From the IMG/VR virus record IMGVR_UViG_3300033067_000869, positions 1 to 41,402 of that record: a stretch of 41,402 nt of DNA; one strand, written 5' to 3'. The notes beneath the pieces were generated by a model, which was given only the letters and a program-made list of their open reading frames with translations, was not told where the DNA came from and ran no database searches. The position numbers were made by a program, and so were the translations under genes. Origin of the DNA: a virus (lineage: Duplodnaviria > Caudoviricetes). Below, in pieces: positions 4,269-38,889 of the stretch; the stretch's first letter is position 1, and each line of letters begins with the position of its first letter.

Positions 4269-4691
4269 ATGGCTAAAATGACTTATAAAGGTTCAGTTGA
4301 TGGTTCTCATCAGAAAATAGAAAGATGGGCAGTTAATGCGTCACAAACAATAATTGATGGACAGTTTGTTATATATTCATCTGGTAAAGTTACTACTGCG
4401 GCGGCTACAGTTGCTGCAAACTCAATCCTAGGAGTGTCTATGGAAGCAATAACCACTACAAGTAGTGTTGACGCTGATGACGCTATATTGGTTGACACTA
4501 ATCCTAATTCCATTTATGAGATGGATTATACTGCTACTACTGTTGCAGTTGGTACAGCTTACGATTTAAGTAATGCTTATACTCTTAATCAAGGAGATAC
4601 TTCTCCGGGAGCAATAAGAGTTCTTGAAGTTGACACAACTAATGTTAGATGCGATGTCATTGTTGAAGATGGATACCATTTCTACGGATAA
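4269..4691 (+). CDS. Putative capsid decoration/cement protein
   Basis: 140-aa beta-rich protein (GQFVIYSSGKV, ILGVSME, VDTNPNSIYEMD) between scaffold and major capsid. Confidence 0.65.
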   Translation: MAKMTYKGSVDGSHQKIERWAVNASQTIIDGQFVIYSSGKVTTAAATVAANSILGVSMEAITTTSSVDADDAILVDTNPNSIYEMDYTATTVAVGTAYDLSNAYTLNQGDTSPGAIRVLEVDTTNVRCDVIVEDGYHFYG

Positions 4692-24658: not shown

Positions 24659-24687
24659 ACTTTAACAAAAAAAATAGTATATTGCAA
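24659..24687 (-). promoter_or_regulatory. SigA-type promoter for sRNA 2
   Basis: Minus strand TTGCAA-17 nt-TAAAGT. Confidence 0.55.
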
Positions 24688-25001: not shown

Positions 25002-25928
25002 TTACAAGCACACTCTTCTTGAACTTGATAACGGATTTCTTAAAGTAGCATCTCTCAACTGTTCTTTGTCAACGTGTGTATATCGTTGAGTCATCTCAAT
25101 ACTTGTATGTCCTAATATTTCCTGTAATGCTCTAATATCAACACCACCATGTTTATACATCAATGTGGCGGCGGTGTGTCGTAACTTGTGCGTCGAATAT
25201 TCTTTTCCAATTCCAGATTTATTCATATTCTTTTTAACAAGATATTGCACCATTTGATTGCTGATTCTCTTCCCTCTCTCACTTAAAAAGAGTGCGTCTT
25301 TATTCCCTTTTGTGGAACGTACGTTTAAATATGATTCAATTGCTTTCAAACAAGCATCGTTAAGGTATACCGTTCTTTCTTTGTTTCCTTTGCCTAGTAT
25401 TGTAAGAGTATCGCCTTTAATCTTTCTAAGGTCTATTCCCACTAATTCAGATAATCTTAAACCACAATTCAAGAACAATGTAATTATTGCATAATCTCTT
25501 ATTTCATGCTTTCCATATACTGTAGCTAAAAGATTTTGGCTATCTTCTAGGGATAAATGTTTTGGCAATACTTTTTGAAGCTTAGGCTTCTCAAGTTCTA
25601 GACTTACATCAACATCAATTAGCTTGGCTTTCTTTGTAAGGTACTTAAAAAACGCTCTAATACTTGCAATTTTTCTACATCTTGAAGTACTGCTTAATTT
25701 CCTATCATGGGTCAAATATGCCATGTATTCGTATAAATCGCTTAAATTTATTGATTTGATTAAATCAATTGTTGCTGATGCTGATTTTAATCTTTTCATA
25801 AATTCAAAAAAGAGTCTTATGTCGTAATAATATTCTCTAATGCTGTTGGTTGATTGATTTTTAATCGTCTCCATGTAGTTTAAATAGTCATTAGCAAATT
25901 GCGGAATATCTGCGTACAATAATATCAC
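25002..25928 (-). CDS. xerC: XerC/XerD-like tyrosine recombinase
   Basis: SAM-like N-domain (RKIASIRAFFKYL), RDYAIITLFLNCGLRLSEL, GKGNKERTV, HKLRHTAAT, LQEILGH, TQRYTHV; 308 aa with no arm-binding domain. Confidence 0.9.
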   Translation of the reverse strand: MILLYADIPQFANDYLNYMETIKNQSTNSIREYYYDIRLFFEFMKRLKSASATIDLIKSINLSDLYEYMAYLTHDRKLSSTSRCRKIASIRAFFKYLTKKAKLIDVDVSLELEKPKLQKVLPKHLSLEDSQNLLATVYGKHEIRDYAIITLFLNCGLRLSELVGIDLRKIKGDTLTILGKGNKERTVYLNDACLKAIESYLNVRSTKGNKDALFLSERGKRISNQMVQYLVKKNMNKSGIGKEYSTHKLRHTAATLMYKHGGVDIRALQEILGHTSIEMTQRYTHVDKEQLRDATLRNPLSSSRRVCL

Positions 25929-25970
25929 TCCTTTTTTTGTATTATATTATGGTACTAAATAACAAGCCCC

Positions 25971-26105
25971 CTATTTGGAGGCTTCTTTCAATATTGGTAT
26001 TACAACTTGATTTACAATTTCCTCTGTTAACTCAGCTACATCGAGTGAATCAACGCCATACGGTTTTAGCTTGTCTGCTATTAGTTCAAATATTTTTTCA
26101 CGCAT
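25971..26105 (-). CDS. 44-aa hypothetical protein, paralogue copy A
   Basis: Not in track; RBS AGGAGG; MREKIFELIADKLKPYGVDSLDVAELTEEIVNQVVIPILKEASK. Confidence 0.7.
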   Translation of the reverse strand: MREKIFELIADKLKPYGVDSLDVAELTEEIVNQVVIPILKEASK

Positions 26106-26194
26106 TATTCAACCTCCTATAAGTTTAATAATCACAGCCATTGCAATCCTTGCACGTTTCTGGTGAACAAACTAAATGTTTAAATTGTCAAAAG

Positions 26195-26389: not shown

Positions 26390-26528
26390 TGTTTTTATCC
26401 TCCTGTGTTTTTATTATTGGCATTACAACTTGATTTACAATTTCCTCAGTCAATTCAGCCATATCAAGCGAATCAACGCCATACGGTTGAAGCTTGTCTG
26501 CTATAAGTTCAAATATTTTTTCACGCAT
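26382..26528 (-). CDS. 48-aa hypothetical protein, paralogue copy B
   Basis: Not in track; RBS GAGGAG; MREKIFELIADKLQPYGVDSLDMAELTEEIVNQVVMPIIKTQEDKNND. Confidence 0.7.
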   Translation of the reverse strand: MREKIFELIADKLQPYGVDSLDMAELTEEIVNQVVMPIIKTQEDKNND

Positions 26529-26700
26529 ATTCTGACTCCTCATCTATACTGTAATCCACCGCTTCATGTATTTTTTCGCATATTTCACTATCTAAATTTT
26601 CTGCAATGCTGTCTATAATCTCTGTCGCAATTTTTACATTCATATTTCGAAGATAATCTCTAATTTCTTGTTTGATTCCAGTAATCAGTTTACTTTGCAT
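26521..26700 (-). CDS. Small acidic hypothetical protein
   Basis: RBS GGAGGTG; overlaps start of next gene. Confidence 0.65.
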   Translation of the reverse strand: MQSKLITGIKQEIRDYLRNMNVKIATEIIDSIAENLDSEICEKIHEAVDYSIDEESEYA

Positions 26701-32018: not shown

Positions 32019-32345
32019 TCAGGACACCGCATCAACGCTAACCCCCTTAATTTTGTTTATTTTGAAGGTACCGTCAACTAGGTCTTGAAAGCTAAAAGTT
32101 TTCCGGTAGTTGCCGACATCAATAATCATAAAAATAGGACTTTTGTAAATGACATGTCCTTTTGTGCTGATATACTTGTAAAGCTTGCAATTCGGTTTCA
32201 TAATTGTTTCTGTCCCCTCAATGTAGTCACCGCATTGAACCCTTTTAAATACCTTATTTGCTACAGCTTGCTTTGTGTGGCTGTCTGCTAGTCGTTTTTC
32301 GTAATATTCGATTCCGTACCCTCTATTACGGGTATTGTTCTGCAT
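32019..32345 (-). CDS. Hypothetical phage protein
   Basis: RBS GGAGGAGG; 108-aa ORF in the operon. Confidence 0.65.
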   Translation of the reverse strand: MQNNTRNRGYGIEYYEKRLADSHTKQAVANKVFKRVQCGDYIEGTETIMKPNCKLYKYISTKGHVIYKSPIFMIIDVGNYRKTFSFQDLVDGTFKINKIKGVSVDAVS

Positions 32346-32881
32346 GATTTTCCCTCCTCCTCTAACAAAAGTTTTTGTTTGTAATGCTCCAACATGTTTT
32401 TCGTTGAGGTTGGAAGCTTTTGTAATTCGTTGAAATGTTGTGCTTTAACTTTGTAAGACCTCATAAAATTTGATGATATAACACTGCTTACCGTGTCAGT
32501 GTCCATCATTGACCATTCACGAAGTTGCAAAGGTGTTTTTACAACTTCCTGTATTACTTTTGGCAAGCTGTCAAACGACTCTTGAGCGTTATAATAAGAG
32601 TTACTAATTGCTTTATACACTAAGCCCCATGCCTCAATCTCTGTCAATTGTGGCGCAGTGCAAATAAGTTGAATTTTATTTTTTACATCTGCTATACTTG
32701 GTGGAAAGGTATTAGTACAAATTAAAGCTTTTACAGCTTCGAAAACAACTTCAAAAGGTTCGTTAAACATAACCATCCACAAATTAACTATGTCGTTCGC
32801 ATCCTGTGGGCTTACTTTATAAGCTTGAGGATAATTAGCCTTCAACAAACGCAAAATTGAAACTGCTTCGGATTCTACCAT
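32288..32881 (-). CDS. Replicative helicase loader/inhibitor (SPP1 G39P-like)
   Basis: ILRLLKANYP..VNLW..FPPSIADVK..EAWGLV..SNFMRSY; directly after the replisome organiser. Confidence 0.85.
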   Translation of the reverse strand: MVESEAVSILRLLKANYPQAYKVSPQDANDIVNLWMVMFNEPFEVVFEAVKALICTNTFPPSIADVKNKIQLICTAPQLTEIEAWGLVYKAISNSYYNAQESFDSLPKVIQEVVKTPLQLREWSMMDTDTVSSVISSNFMRSYKVKAQHFNELQKLPTSTKNMLEHYKQKLLLEEEGKSCRTIPVIEGTESNITKND

Positions 32882-33702
32882 ATCCCTTTTTCCCTCCCTA
32901 TCTCAGTAAATACATTGTCTTTAGTATTGTTGTTATTGGTTTTATAAGATTGTTTGAGTTCGAAAAAACCTTGATAACCATTAGCAATACTTTGATTTAC
33001 AACAGCTAATTTGTCGCTAAATTTATCAAGGTCTTTTAATAGTAAATTGAGTTGGTATGCAGTTCTAACTGGCTTTTTAATTTGTTTCCGTAAGTCTATA
33101 AAGTTTTCAATTGCAATTTTTAACTCTGAATCATCTGTGTAAGATTGTATTTGTTCAGAAAAATCAACTATGGTTTTTATATTCTTTATCTTATTCTTAT
33201 CTATATCTTTATTATCTTTATCTATATCTACTTCTATAGTGCTAACATTAGTTTTACTGTTAGATTCAATATTAGTTTTACTGTTAGTTTTACTGTTAGT
33301 TTTACATTCAACTAACAGTTTTTGTTCCTCCCTTCTTTTTGCCATATACTCCCTTTGATATTCTCTTTTTGCGTCAATTTGGTCTAATGTTTGGTGTTTG
33401 CTCCAATTTGGTATCGTAATAACATTCTGAATAATTTCAATCATGCCAAAATCTGCAAATGTTTTTAACGCAAGCCTTACAGTATTAATATTTCTGCGGA
33501 ATATTGTTGAAAACATTTCATCGGTGTATGCAATTCTTTCATTCAGCATAAAAACTCCTTTGTTATTGTTTTTTCCTGCTAAACAAAGAAGTTTAAACCA
33601 TATCACTATAACTGCATCAGCTTCGGGCATGCTTTCAATGAGTAATACTTTTTCGTCGTCAAAAATGTCTGTAACAATTTTAATCCATTTAACATCAGAC
33701 AT
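32875..33702 (-). CDS. Phage replisome organiser (Phage_rep_org_N) replication initiator
   Basis: MSDVKWIKIVTDIFDDEK..IWFKLLCLAGK..IAYTDEM..VRLALKTF..IPNWSKHQ. Confidence 0.92.
   Translation of the reverse strand: MSDVKWIKIVTDIFDDEKVLLIESMPEADAVIVIWFKLLCLAGKNNNKGVFMLNERIAYTDEMFSTIFRRNINTVRLALKTFADFGMIEIIQNVITIPNWSKHQTLDQIDAKREYQREYMAKRREEQKLLVECKTNSKTNSKTNIESNSKTNVSTIEVDIDKDNKDIDKNKIKNIKTIVDFSEQIQSYTDDSELKIAIENFIDLRKQIKKPVRTAYQLNLLLKDLDKFSDKLAVVNQSIANGYQGFFELKQSYKTNNNNTKDNVFTEIGREKGIW
33248..33305. repeat. 12-bp iterons inside the initiator gene (probable lytic origin)
   Basis: TTAGTTTTACTG at 33248, 33272, 33284, partial at 33296, degenerate at 33260; adjacent low-complexity AT-rich tract. 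Confidence 0.65.
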
Positions 33703-33981: not shown

Positions 33982-34791
33982 TTACCTCCTCCATTCGTAG
34001 ATTATTTTTGCATCTCTCCCAGAGTGTAAACGCCAAGTTGTACCGCTAAAACTTGGTACTAAACCTAATTCCCATAAGTCTATACAAGGTTGAAATGGGT
34101 TTATACCGGGTTCATGGTCAACATAGTTCCAACTTGGAACAGTATAAAAACTGGAAGTATAAGCCAAAACCGAATCACCAACCAAATCCCTAACCGAATA
34201 CCAAACCGAATACCAAACCGAATCCCAAACCGAATCACCAACCAAATCCCTAACCAAATCCCTAACCGAATACCAAACCGAATCCCAAACCGAATCACCA
34301 ACCGAAGCACTAACCAAATCCCTAACCGAATACCAAACCGAATACCAAACCGAATCCCAAACCGAATCACCAACCGAAGCACTAACCGAAGCACTAAACA
34401 AAGACCTAACCGAAGACCATTTTTTTAGCAAATCAATTTCAGTTTCGTTAACGGTATCGCCATGTGCGATATTAAAAGGATTTATTAATTCTTTGATTTG
34501 CAATTCTGGAACAATTGTTTTAAAATCCAGTTCCAAACACTGTTTTTTAACCGATTCTGAATCGTCAACAGTGTTAAGTTGGTCAATTGTGAGCTCCCTT
34601 GTTAGAGGGTTATACTCATATTTGTTCATTTTGTCCTCTTTTTCGCCTTTAAATCCGTAGTAGTCTGCTATGGATGTATGAGAATCCGTGTCATATTTTA
34701 GTTTGCCTGATATTATTTTTTTGCGAATCGTAGAATCAAAATACCATATTTTACCTTGTCCATTACTGATACAAGAGAAAAATTTACACAT
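33982..34791 (-). CDS. Phage protein with central (S/L)V-x-x tetrapeptide repeat
   Basis: MCKFFS..DSHTSIA..NKYEYNP..PFQPCIDLWELGLVPSF flanking the repeats; RBS AGGAGG. Confidence 0.8.
   Translation of the reverse strand: MCKFFSCISNGQGKIWYFDSTIRKKIISGKLKYDTDSHTSIADYYGFKGEKEDKMNKYEYNPLTRELTIDQLNTVDDSESVKKQCLELDFKTIVPELQIKELINPFNIAHGDTVNETEIDLLKKWSSVRSLFSASVSASVGDSVWDSVWYSVWYSVRDLVSASVGDSVWDSVWYSVRDLVRDLVGDSVWDSVWYSVWYSVRDLVGDSVLAYTSSFYTVPSWNYVDHEPGINPFQPCIDLWELGLVPSFSGTTWRLHSGRDAKIIYEWRR
34162..34413 (-). repeat. 21 x 12-nt combinatorial coding repeat
   Basis: T(C/T)GGTT alternating with AGTGCT/GGTGAT/TGGGAT/TGGTAT/AGGGAT. Confidence 0.9.
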
Positions 34792-37087: not shown

Positions 37088-37430
37088 TTCACACTTCGTG
37101 GATTACTTAAGCAAAAAAATTTCTTCAAAAGTTTTGTCCAGTATTTCCATTATTTTCAATATTTCGCTTAGTGTGAATTGTCGCTTCCCTGTGATTTTTA
37201 GGCTAACACTGCAAGCATTTATTCCAAGTCTTTTCGCTAGTTCAGATTGATTAATTCCTTTAGATATAAGTAAGCCTTTAAGATTTGTATGTTTCATTTG
37301 TTTTCTCCTTTGCTTCACAAATCGTGAAGCCCATAATTTAATATTACTCCACATTTTGATAATTGTCAATAGTATTTTAATAAAAAAATAAAATATTTTC
37401 ACAAAGCGTGGGAAATACACAAATTGAGCA
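37088..37430. promoter_or_regulatory. Immunity region: early promoter and repeated operators
   Basis: Minus strand TTGACA(37369-64)-17-TAATAT(37346-41); TTCACA-NNN-CGTGR sites at 37088, 37314, 37398 and degenerate ones at 37348, 37416. Confidence 0.7.
37103..37297 (-). CDS. cro: Cro-like XRE HTH regulator
   Basis: LKGLLISKGINQSELAKRLGI..SVSLKITGKRQFTLSEI..TFEEIF; RBS AAGGAG; divergent from repressor. Confidence 0.85.
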   Translation of the reverse strand: MKHTNLKGLLISKGINQSELAKRLGINACSVSLKITGKRQFTLSEILKIMEILDKTFEEIFLLK

Positions 37431-37466
37431 AGATATAAACTATAATAAAATATGGAGGTGTTAAAA

Positions 37467-37811
37467 ATGATAGAAAAAAGAATGAAGGAATTGCGGGAAA
37501 ACAACAATCTCCAACAAAAAGAAGTTGCACAAATGCTGAATATAACTGCAACATCGTACAATAACTATGAAAGCGGTATAAGGCGCCCGCATTATGAATT
37601 GCTCGTCAAGATAGCTGAAATCTACAGCGTAACGGTTGACTACCTACTCGGAATAACTAACGTACGTCATTGTGACATAGTCAAATTTTTAAATTTTATG
37701 TCGGGGGTGTTGTATTTGCATAATATTATTTTTATAGAATTGCCTGTAATTATTGTGTACGTAGTAATTGGAAGCATAAAGTACGTTAATATAAAATATC
37801 AAAAAAAATAA
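37467..37811 (+). CDS. cI: CI-like XRE repressor
   Basis: RMKELRENNNLQQKEVAQMLNITATSYNNYESGIRRP..LVKIAEIYSVTVDYLLG; RBS GGAGGTG; no S24 peptidase domain. Confidence 0.85.
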   Translation: MIEKRMKELRENNNLQQKEVAQMLNITATSYNNYESGIRRPHYELLVKIAEIYSVTVDYLLGITNVRHCDIVKFLNFMSGVLYLHNIIFIELPVIIVYVVIGSIKYVNIKYQKK

Positions 37812-37814
37812 AAG

Positions 37815-37838
37815 AATCCCCAGAAGGGATTTTTTTTA
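37815..37838 (+). terminator. Terminator after repressor
   Basis: AATCCC-cagaa-GGGATT followed by T-run. Confidence 0.7.
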
Positions 37839-37866
37839 TTGACTTTTTTTTAGTATATGGTAAAAT
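37839..37866 (+). promoter_or_regulatory. SigA-type promoter of the ORF-less structured transcript
   Basis: TTGACT-16 nt-TAAAAT with extended TG. Confidence 0.65.
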
Positions 37867-37871
37867 GGTAG

Positions 37872-37950
37872 ACAAACGAACAAAGCCTTTGCGCTATACC
37901 CCACCAAGGTTCGCAAAAGCTCTTATAATTTTTTGTGCTTATTAATTTGT
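37872..37950 (-). ncRNA. Putative antisense copy-control RNA (RNAI-like)
   Basis: Promoter TTGATT(37986-81)-18-TATAAT(37962-57); hairpin AGCUUUUGCG..ACC-UUGGUGG-GGU..CGCAAAGGCU. Confidence 0.55.
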
Positions 37951-38220
37951 ATTAATATTATACTCACAAGTTGAGTAAAAAATCAATACTTATTTTAAAT
38001 TTTGCAAAAAAAGATTATTCGAAGCGTTCGGATAGTCTTTTTATTTTGGCTCTAGGCACTGCCAAATAAGAGTTTGACAAGATAAAAGGACAAGCAATAA
38101 CTTTTACGGTGATGGTAGATAATGACGCCCTACCCTATCCGTTGAGGTCGAGAGCCGGAAACGGGGACTCTTGTCTTTGCGTCAAGGCACAAAGGGAAAA
38201 TTAAACTTTGTTCAGGGGGG
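37872..38220 (+). ncRNA. Putative replication primer-like structured RNA (candidate ARRPOF/ColE1 RNAII analogue)
   Basis: No ORF; at least six stems, a GAAA tetraloop, a TGACGC/GCGTCA pseudoknot pairing and a terminal TCAGGGGGG. Confidence 0.55.
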
Positions 38221-38342
38221 TTCTTTCTTTTTCTTTTCTTTCTTTTTTCTCTAAGTTGACAACTTCCTCTCTTCCCTCTTTCTTTTCTTTTTCTTTCTGA
38301 GGGATAGACCTTCCAACATTTTACATAAATTATAATTAATTA

Positions 38343-38816
38343 TTATTTATTTTTAAATATATTATTCTTAATTCTTTCAAAAATGCCTTTTTTCTGCTGT
38401 GTTTTAGCTTCAATCATAATTAACCTATCATTACTACTTTTAAGCAAAATTTGGCTGTTTTCATTCAATCGAGTTAAATTTTCTACTTGTGTATATAATT
38501 TTTGTTTATCACTTTGCAGGTCGGTAATTTGTTTTTGTAACGCTTCAATCAAAGCTTGGTTGTCACTTGTACCTTTTGCACTACAAAGGTTTGCGGTTTC
38601 GGTGTCAACTATTTTTGTTTCTGGTTGACTGTCGGTTGACTGGTTGACAAGGTTAAGGGATTGTCGTAATAACTCTAAACCCTGCTCCGATATGTATTTT
38701 GTGTTATTTTTTATTTTTATGTGCGGTTTAAGTTCTGGCATAGTCTCCAGCTTTTTGTATACCGCTTGCCTAGATATAGACAACTGACGTGATACCTCTA
38801 AGATTGTATATAACAT
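38343..38816 (-). CDS. Plasmid-type HTH plus coiled-coil protein (DUF536/OrfX, pSK1 Par-like architecture)
   Basis: YTILEVSRQLSISRQAVYKKL HTH; LIEALQKQI..LTRLNENSQILL coiled coil; KKGIFERI tail; RBS AGGGGAG. Confidence 0.75.
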   Translation of the reverse strand: MLYTILEVSRQLSISRQAVYKKLETMPELKPHIKIKNNTKYISEQGLELLRQSLNLVNQSTDSQPETKIVDTETANLCSAKGTSDNQALIEALQKQITDLQSDKQKLYTQVENLTRLNENSQILLKSSNDRLIMIEAKTQQKKGIFERIKNNIFKNK

Positions 38817-38889
38817 TATTACACTCCCCTGCTCCGTAAGATGTGTTAACTTTAGCAAAATAAGTTGTCAATTGTCAACAAAAAAACGC

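Follow-up and report, generated by a model that had tools for sequence, protein, structure and literature searches.

Does the largest gene-free stretch of this phage genome act as an origin of the Rep-less, RNA-primed kind that would keep the phage as a plasmid? The question was raised by an earlier note on the DNA analysed here (41,402 nt, hereafter the window), which is the whole of the IMG/VR record IMGVR_UViG_3300033067_000869. The window is linear and 96% complete; its 5′ end lies inside the large terminase gene (terL), and the host flank is absent. The matches of the portal, capsid and head-closure proteins fit a podophage, as had been claimed, and the host is probably a clostridium because the named best matches of the recombinase are clostridial chromosomal XerC/XerD proteins. 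The gene-free stretch spans 37812–38342 (531 nt, where about 500 bp had been estimated), and the next largest gaps of the window are 242, 225, and 214 nt. It is bordered by the cI side of the immunity switch and by a plasmid-type gene, and the lytic initiator is, as the note stated, encoded apart from it. The setting is as follows.

32288..33702, minus strand: lytic initiator (Phage_rep_org_N match) and G39P-type loader gene
37103-37811: cI/cro-like genes, the cI identified by its HTH_3 match
37810..37836, both directions: bidirectional terminator after the cI-like gene, insulating the element
38343..38816, minus strand: 157-aa HTH/coiled-coil gene of plasmid type, reading towards the element from a promoter at 38878..38849

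At 33982–34791, an ORF contains the internal repeat DSVWDSVWYSVWYSVRDLV, at which the assemblies break.

The small frames of the 531-nt gap match no family and gave no PHROG match, so that this candidate origin region comes without an encoded Rep. On the plus strand past the internal terminator described below, the longest stop-free frame has 44 codons and no family match, and no rep gene was found there; on the minus strand a Lys/Glu-rich frame of 39 codons runs over the pyrimidine tract. No DnaA-box-like site was found near the element. The 5′ half of the gap contains the following predicted parts.

37839..37866, plus strand: sense sigma-A-type promoter TTGACT-16-TAAAAT, TG-extended, 10/12 matches, predicted start near 37873
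37873..37950, plus strand: leader overlapped by the antisense RNA, with the target hairpin at 37882-37923
37878..37950, minus strand: predicted antisense RNA of about 70-75 nt, with a 12-bp stem, a loop with UUGG and a U-rich end
37920..37938, plus strand: predicted antiterminator strand, which would base-pair with the internal terminator's 5′ arm
37957..37986, minus strand: antisense promoter TTGATT-18-TATAAT, 10/12 matches
38008..38048, plus strand: internal intrinsic terminator (attenuator) with a 16-bp stem, −15.6 kcal/mol on the plus strand and −7.2 on the minus strand

Matches to both promoters that had been proposed were thus present, with the antisense one convergent on the sense one. 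Promoter-like matches numbered 22 in 3.3 kb against 13.4 ± 3.6 in shuffled sequences, so a single match is weak evidence. A 50-nt stretch resembling the antisense promoter region lies upstream of a minus-strand gene of a Bacillus plasmid. The hairpin of the putative antisense RNA, which had also been claimed, is more stable on the minus strand (−18.2 kcal/mol) than on the plus strand (−10.2 kcal/mol), and the whole 81-nt antisense RNA folds with a z of −1.77. Its loop carries UUGG, which we take to be a U-turn motif. At the sequence level, the antisense RNA overlaps the 5′ end of the long RNA. A type I toxin-antitoxin pair was considered and rejected, as downstream of the predicted start there is no small ORF that begins with ATG and has a ribosome site.

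The internal terminator at 38008–38048 had been missed in the earlier note. It lies 57 nt past the antisense start, its z is −3.56, and none of 200 shuffles was as good; a U-run is present on the minus strand too. The description of the transcript as heavily base-paired applies over its full length (z −2.69; 2 of 100 shuffles as good) and not to the 3′ portion, with z values between −0.1 and −0.8.

The position of the terminator behind the leader suggested a switch. When the folding of nascent prefixes was followed, 37920–37938 paired with the 5′ arm of the terminator until the 3′ arm emerged. With the 5′ arm alone made, 71% of it was predicted to be leader-paired, as compared with 5% when the antisense-covered part was blocked (p about 0.04–0.1). 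Shuffled leaders gave 30% pairing of this arm, with 6 of 100 as high as the real leader, and the tests of the antiterminator duplex were borderline (86 of 2000 and 29 of 300 shuffles as good). At equilibrium the terminator wins, forming with or without the antisense RNA (P 0.95). In two plasmid loci compared below (L028 and L037), the corresponding pairing was no better than in shuffles. Antisense-driven kinetic attenuation is described for pT181 and pIP501 (PMC5703833), and the folding models are suggestive of a switch that behaves in this way. A strong terminator follows a predicted antiterminator, which binding of the antisense RNA would hide, and the control therefore looks like attenuation of the pT181/pIP501 type and not like the folding control of ColE1.

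The 3′ half of the gap contains three further parts.

38045..38220, plus strand: candidate pre-primer RNA, a GC-rich (0.46 vs 0.34), G-skewed non-coding block
38215..38220, plus strand: G6 tract (TCAGGGGGG, as in ColE1)
38222..38298, plus strand: perfect homopyrimidine mirror repeat, an H-DNA/triplex motif

The block gave no Rfam or PHROG match, and between the terminator and the G6 it folds like its shuffles (z −0.16 in one run), a score that is non-discriminating at this length, since 178-nt windows of the plasmid blocks described below range from −2.1 to +1.4. The G6 tract lay where the earlier note had placed it, and the pyrimidine run reported behind it was borne out, with 71 pyrimidines in the 78 nt that follow; this tract is the most extreme on either strand. 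The note had missed that the tract is a mirror repeat, the only one of at least 14 nt in the window. Its arms (38222–38243 and 38277–38298) are 22 nt long with 17 T and 5 C each, and they are separated by a 33-nt spacer. When the 78 nt were shuffled 3000 times with dinucleotides preserved, the longest mirror had 20 nt, so that 22 was never reached. Read as direct repeats, the arms are identical at 20 of 22 positions, so that a duplication plus one slip could explain the mirror. A homopurine/homopyrimidine mirror repeat is what defines an H-DNA motif, and the triplex itself is putative. H-DNA stalls DNA and RNA polymerases, and pyrimidine-rich RNA gives weaker RNA–DNA hybrids, as described in a review (PMC11667243). 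The mirror repeat was absent from the 11 plasmid records scanned, and no role of H-DNA at a plasmid origin was found in the literature searched. The segment 38167–38240 contains AAACTTTGTTCAGGG, which resembles the pT181 countertranscript loop (E = 8) and is probably a chance match.

The gene that converges on the element led to small plasmids of Clostridium. The HTH protein matched 17 plasmid records, all of Clostridium, and 268 cluster representatives. Its relatives adjoin annotated Rep genes in L003, L071, and L074, probable Rep frames in L002, L008, L015, L019, L020, and L021, and ParM in L072 and L073, while most loci of the Acidaminobacter/Fusibacter type are chromosome-like in context; this sorting leaves out L022, L024, L035, L075, and L076. 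In a 5.3-kb record of C. septicum (L001), the HTH gene occurs without Rep, beside a long non-coding block. Viral relatives of both the HTH and the portal protein were not found, and the metagenome scan gave at least one distant locus among the matches listed. The related phage G406 is without the HTH gene, and its immunity region was not recognised. In L014 the HTH gene is followed downstream (4544–4601) by a mirror repeat of mixed base composition, 17 nt or longer, which may be an assembly artefact.

The non-coding blocks of these plasmids fall into three types: A, with the EGFOA RNA (RF02955), in L001 and L028–L032; B in L033, L036–L040 (L037 being pNF1, as named in its paper), L014, and L027; and C in L034. 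Type A was found in 37 Clostridium plasmid records, the second type in 15 and the third in 4, and the HTH family is present in 6 of 15 loci with such a block. In all 10 plasmid loci measured, a sense promoter (8–10 of 12 matches) is followed by a facing antisense promoter and then by a terminator, the antisense overlap being 140–212 nt and the terminator lying 50–139 nt past the antisense start with −14.7 to −20.5 kcal/mol. The corresponding values in the window are a 78-nt overlap, a terminator 57 nt later, and −15.6 kcal/mol. The block behind the terminator, measured in 7 loci, is 380–470 nt long with a GC of 0.41–0.44 and a z of −2.2 to −4.8 against shuffles.

All frames of at least 110 aa from five complete plasmids were checked for Rep, and none of these 21 ORF pieces matched a Rep family. 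In L028 and L029 the coding content is limited to enzymes of restriction-modification and a single protein of at most 130 aa, and the longest frames of L033 have 142 and 169 aa; these three are the strong Rep-less cases, because Pfam missed the probable Reps of L020 and L021. As no Rep was found, we infer from sequence that the plasmid blocks are origins. Of 13 loci scanned, 5 contained EGFOA with a score exceeding the Rfam cut-off (L028:2329–2444, L029:4013–4128, L030:2372–2490, L031:945–1063, and L032:9763–9881), and the type A block ends in CAAG7-AGCGAGCCGTAT, close to the TCAG6-CGGAGCCTAT of ColE1. Because EGFOA lies inside an attenuator-gated block with this ColE1-like end and no annotated Rep, its position suggests a role in replication. 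EGFOA is described in the supplement of PMC5737381, and a preprint (bioRxiv 10.64898/2026.07.01.735769) places it in large gene-free regions; in the available text of the latter neither “plasmid” nor “replication” is used (0 occurrences). In the literature covered, mostly outside subscription journals, EGFOA was not found connected with replication, and the PMC5737381 supplement may mention plasmids.

Type B contains a structured RNA of about 400–450 nt that is not listed in Rfam, behind the same kind of leader (L033:3030–3640 among others); across 8 sequences, 20 of its 72 predicted pairs show compensatory changes. Type C (L034:19710–20440) belongs to C. perfringens plasmids of 34–40 kb (4 records) and ends in GGGAGGGAGGG. 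In L036 a type A-like leader is joined to a type B RNA (as compared with L001/L030), and therefore the parts are modular. A small gene for an RNase H1 N-terminal domain of the hybrid-binding type often follows directly after the RNA blocks (L001:285–512, L031, L032, L037, L014, and L027). Such a gene would suit an RNA–DNA hybrid origin, and it was not seen in the window. The RepH motif of pCB102 was in none of the loci.

The phage element shares with the plasmid blocks the order of parts, the enrichment in GC and G, and the frequent link to the HTH family. It differs in that no homology is detectable, in its RNA block, which at about 175 nt is roughly half their length and folds no better than shuffles, and in its mirror repeat, which they lack; moreover, the role of the plasmid blocks is itself one that we infer. 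Profiles of the plasmid leader and of types A and B did not match the element; for type C, the comparison is limited to the plasmid blastn, in which the window gave no match to it. EGFOA had no match in the element at E ≤ 10, nothing in Rfam was better than E = 1, and the window lacks the GAG/GCG-AAGGG motif that the plasmids carry downstream. The layout of promoter, antisense promoter, terminator, and GC-rich block is present in the phage element, and of the 86 gene-free gaps scanned for it, 3 were positive, those being in the window, L036, and L038. The same three were recovered when the gap filter was removed, that is, 2 of the 14 block loci and none in ~383 kb of other AT-rich loci, with thresholds that had been set after the cases were seen and that find just these 2 of 14 positives.

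Relatives of the element itself were not found in PLSDB, INPHARED, the IMG/VR patterns or the Clostridia genomes searched. The blastn against plasmids and phages gave short AT-rich matches only, and neither of the two that were opened was the element. The three IMG/VR patterns had 0, 0, and 28 matches, with the tract or the block in none of the 28; the type A end motif had 0 matches in IMG/VR, and a search of phages for type A was likewise negative. Among 399 Clostridia genomes, which were searched twice, and 11 of one order, low-complexity matches and one chance match within a gene were obtained. As judged from these comparisons, the element is an analogue by design and a singleton in the searches made.

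A further lead to the lifestyle of the phage was the recombinase gene.

25002..25928, minus strand: XerC-type tyrosine recombinase, candidate dimer resolvase

Xer recombinases resolve plasmid dimers. The protein is 55–63% identical to clostridial chromosomal XerC. Its best 120 matches have 55–62% identity; those with a name are XerC/XerD proteins from the chromosomes of Clostridia such as Acetivibrio and Petroclostridium, and typical phage integrases were not among these 120. The recombinase fits plasmid dimer resolution by its predicted family. In one viral contig (L045:9962–13545) such an XerC lies beside genes for an HTH_36 protein and a ParA-type ATPase. Ten viral XerC loci were found and the ORFs were read in six; two or more of the loci appear to be proviral or to come from filamentous phages, so the recombinase is compatible with integration too. 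In sequencing run X1, possibly the source sample, one 34,209-nt contig spans xerC unbroken. In run X2 a loose end of 123 nt was seen at low depth in one contig, close to xerC at 24660, and it may be an attachment junction or a chance match. A search for dif-like motifs gave 4 weak sites, one of them at 25940 just upstream of xerC, and was not convincing. No ParA, ParB or ParM was found among the frames scanned (22 by Pfam and 31 by PHROGs, a part of the ORFs). Upstream of xerC, a short minus-strand gene-like stretch is present in two near-identical copies (25980–26110 and 26410–26530).

Taken together, the idea of a Rep-less plasmid origin is partly supported, and indirectly so, because the layout matches that of the Rep-less Clostridium plasmids, the HTH family is tied to plasmid replicons, and the recombinase is of XerC type. 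By analogy, the element would be a Rep-less, attenuator-gated, RNA-primed prophage origin that keeps the phage as a plasmid, a reading to which we give about even confidence. Against it stand the missing homology to the plasmid blocks, to ColE1 and to Rfam families, the shortness of the block, the absence of relatives from the databases searched, the equilibrium advantage of the terminator, the borderline antiterminator, the lack of partition genes among the frames scanned, the possible origin of the mirror arms by duplication, the X2 loose end near xerC, and the weaker hybrids made by pyrimidine-rich RNA. The RNA would start near 37873. Without the antisense RNA, 37920–37938 would pair with the 5′ arm of the terminator and allow read-through; with it, the terminator would form and the RNA would stop near 38045, and copy number is predicted to be set by this antisense-driven attenuation. 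The read-through RNA may then stay hybridised at the G6, where a triplex of the mirror repeat (H-DNA, or U-rich RNA clamping the purine template) may stall the polymerase and hold the strands open. RNase H and Pol I, followed by the PriA primosome, would start a theta fork, XerC would resolve dimers, and the HTH protein would serve as an accessory maintenance factor. The steps from the hybrid at the G6 onward are drawn solely from analogy with ColE1 and pAM-beta-1. A bolder form of the proposal, which we put forward only tentatively and consider doubtful, is that of a minimal clostridial phage-plasmid origin, in which an attenuator-gated RNA of ~350–430 nt, locked by a G-run and a pyrimidine triplex clamp, would replace the long folded RNA of the ColE1 kind, within a wider class in Clostridia that would give EGFOA a function.

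The same parts may be read in other ways. A transcription-activated (R-loop/triplex) auxiliary origin or fork-control site, serving the phage's own cycle and not plasmid maintenance, is unlikely in our estimate. Such a site would go well with a phage that has its own initiator and loader, with the lack of partition genes among the frames scanned, with the polymerase-stalling property of H-DNA (PMC11667243), and with the absence of the mirror repeat from the 11 plasmid records; an antisense RNA and an attenuator are the logic of copy-number control (PMC5703833), however, and the element has the plasmid-type HTH gene as its neighbour and lies to the cI side of the switch. It is likewise improbable that the locus encodes an antisense-gated regulatory RNA, acting in immunity, exclusion or incompatibility, or just a small RNA of 175 nt whose end is at 38048, while the block behind it forms the 3′ region and stop of the HTH transcript. 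The dominance of the terminator at equilibrium, the U-run on the minus strand, and the missing folding signal of the 3′ block point that way, but the terminator hairpin has twice the stability on the plus strand that it has on the minus strand, the lack of a small ORF with a ribosome site speaks against a type I toxin, and the GC enrichment, the G6, and the mirror repeat would be left unexplained.

We also assign a low probability to a captured remnant of a plasmid replicon (an attenuated leader with the HTH gene) that has lost its rep gene or its long RNA, in a prophage that integrates through XerC. In favour of a remnant are the HTH family often flanking Rep genes, the shortness of the block, the weak pT181 look-alike at 38167–38240, the 39-codon frame over the tract, and the X2 loose end; against it are the intact state of both promoters, both hairpins, and the perfect mirror repeat, the small frames without PHROG match, and an XerC unlike typical phage integrases (best 120 matches). 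That AT-rich promoter matches, a terminator, and low-complexity DNA came together by chance would be favoured by the commonness of promoter-like matches (13.4 expected by chance) and by the single known occurrence, but is very improbable given the terminator (0 of 200 shuffles), the mirror (0 of 3000), and a layout absent from ~383 kb of control loci.

The reading as an RNA-primed plasmid origin bears on how Rep-less Gram-positive plasmids replicate, for example the much-used pCB102 replicon and pKH9. The loci indicate a common design in Clostridia, an antisense-gated attenuator followed by an RNA ending at a G-run, of which the phage element would be a compact version with a triplex motif, and they place EGFOA, an RNA without a function, within an attenuator-gated plasmid block. 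A 1-kb fragment could yield new compatible vectors for industrial Clostridia.

No such origin in a clostridial phage was found in the literature, mostly outside subscription journals (PMC5894183 and PMC12990946 were also used). The replication of pCB102 from Clostridium butyricum is of unknown mechanism, with RepH doubtful, and “may be RNA based” (PMC4383383, PMC3566075); the element would resemble it in this suspected RNA basis, which in pCB102 goes with a sensitivity to read-in transcription. Replication of the Fusobacterium plasmid pKH9 does not require rep and depends on a region of 1 kb that is free of genes and contains ARRPOF (PMC5737381). Rep being unneeded and a structured RNA would be the shared features, and Rfam gave no ARRPOF match in the element. 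In the PriCT_1 family, Pol I extends a transcribed primer (PMC5703833). The likeness to ColE1 (RNA II/RNA I; NC_001371), on which the earlier note had built its case, is only partial. ColE1 does carry TCAGGGGGG, its G6 lying at 1175 of NC_001371, and both systems have no Rep gene, an overlapping antisense RNA (predicted in the phage), and TCAG6 at the end of the long RNA; two overlapping antisense RNAs are described for ColE1 (PMC12663086). In contrast, a terminator scan of the ColE1 primer region found none whereas the element has one inside, CGGAGCCTAT follows the G6 of ColE1 where the pyrimidine mirror repeat follows that of the phage, the element comes from a Gram-positive phage, and neither an RNAI match in Rfam nor a blastn match to the ColE1 origin region was obtained. 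With pT181 and pIP501/pAM-beta-1 (Inc18), the element shares a countertranscript (here predicted) over the leader and a terminator downstream, but their terminator gates a rep mRNA and that of the phage a non-coding block. The element is ColE1-like at its 3′ end and pT181/Inc18-like at its 5′ end, and a member of neither group.
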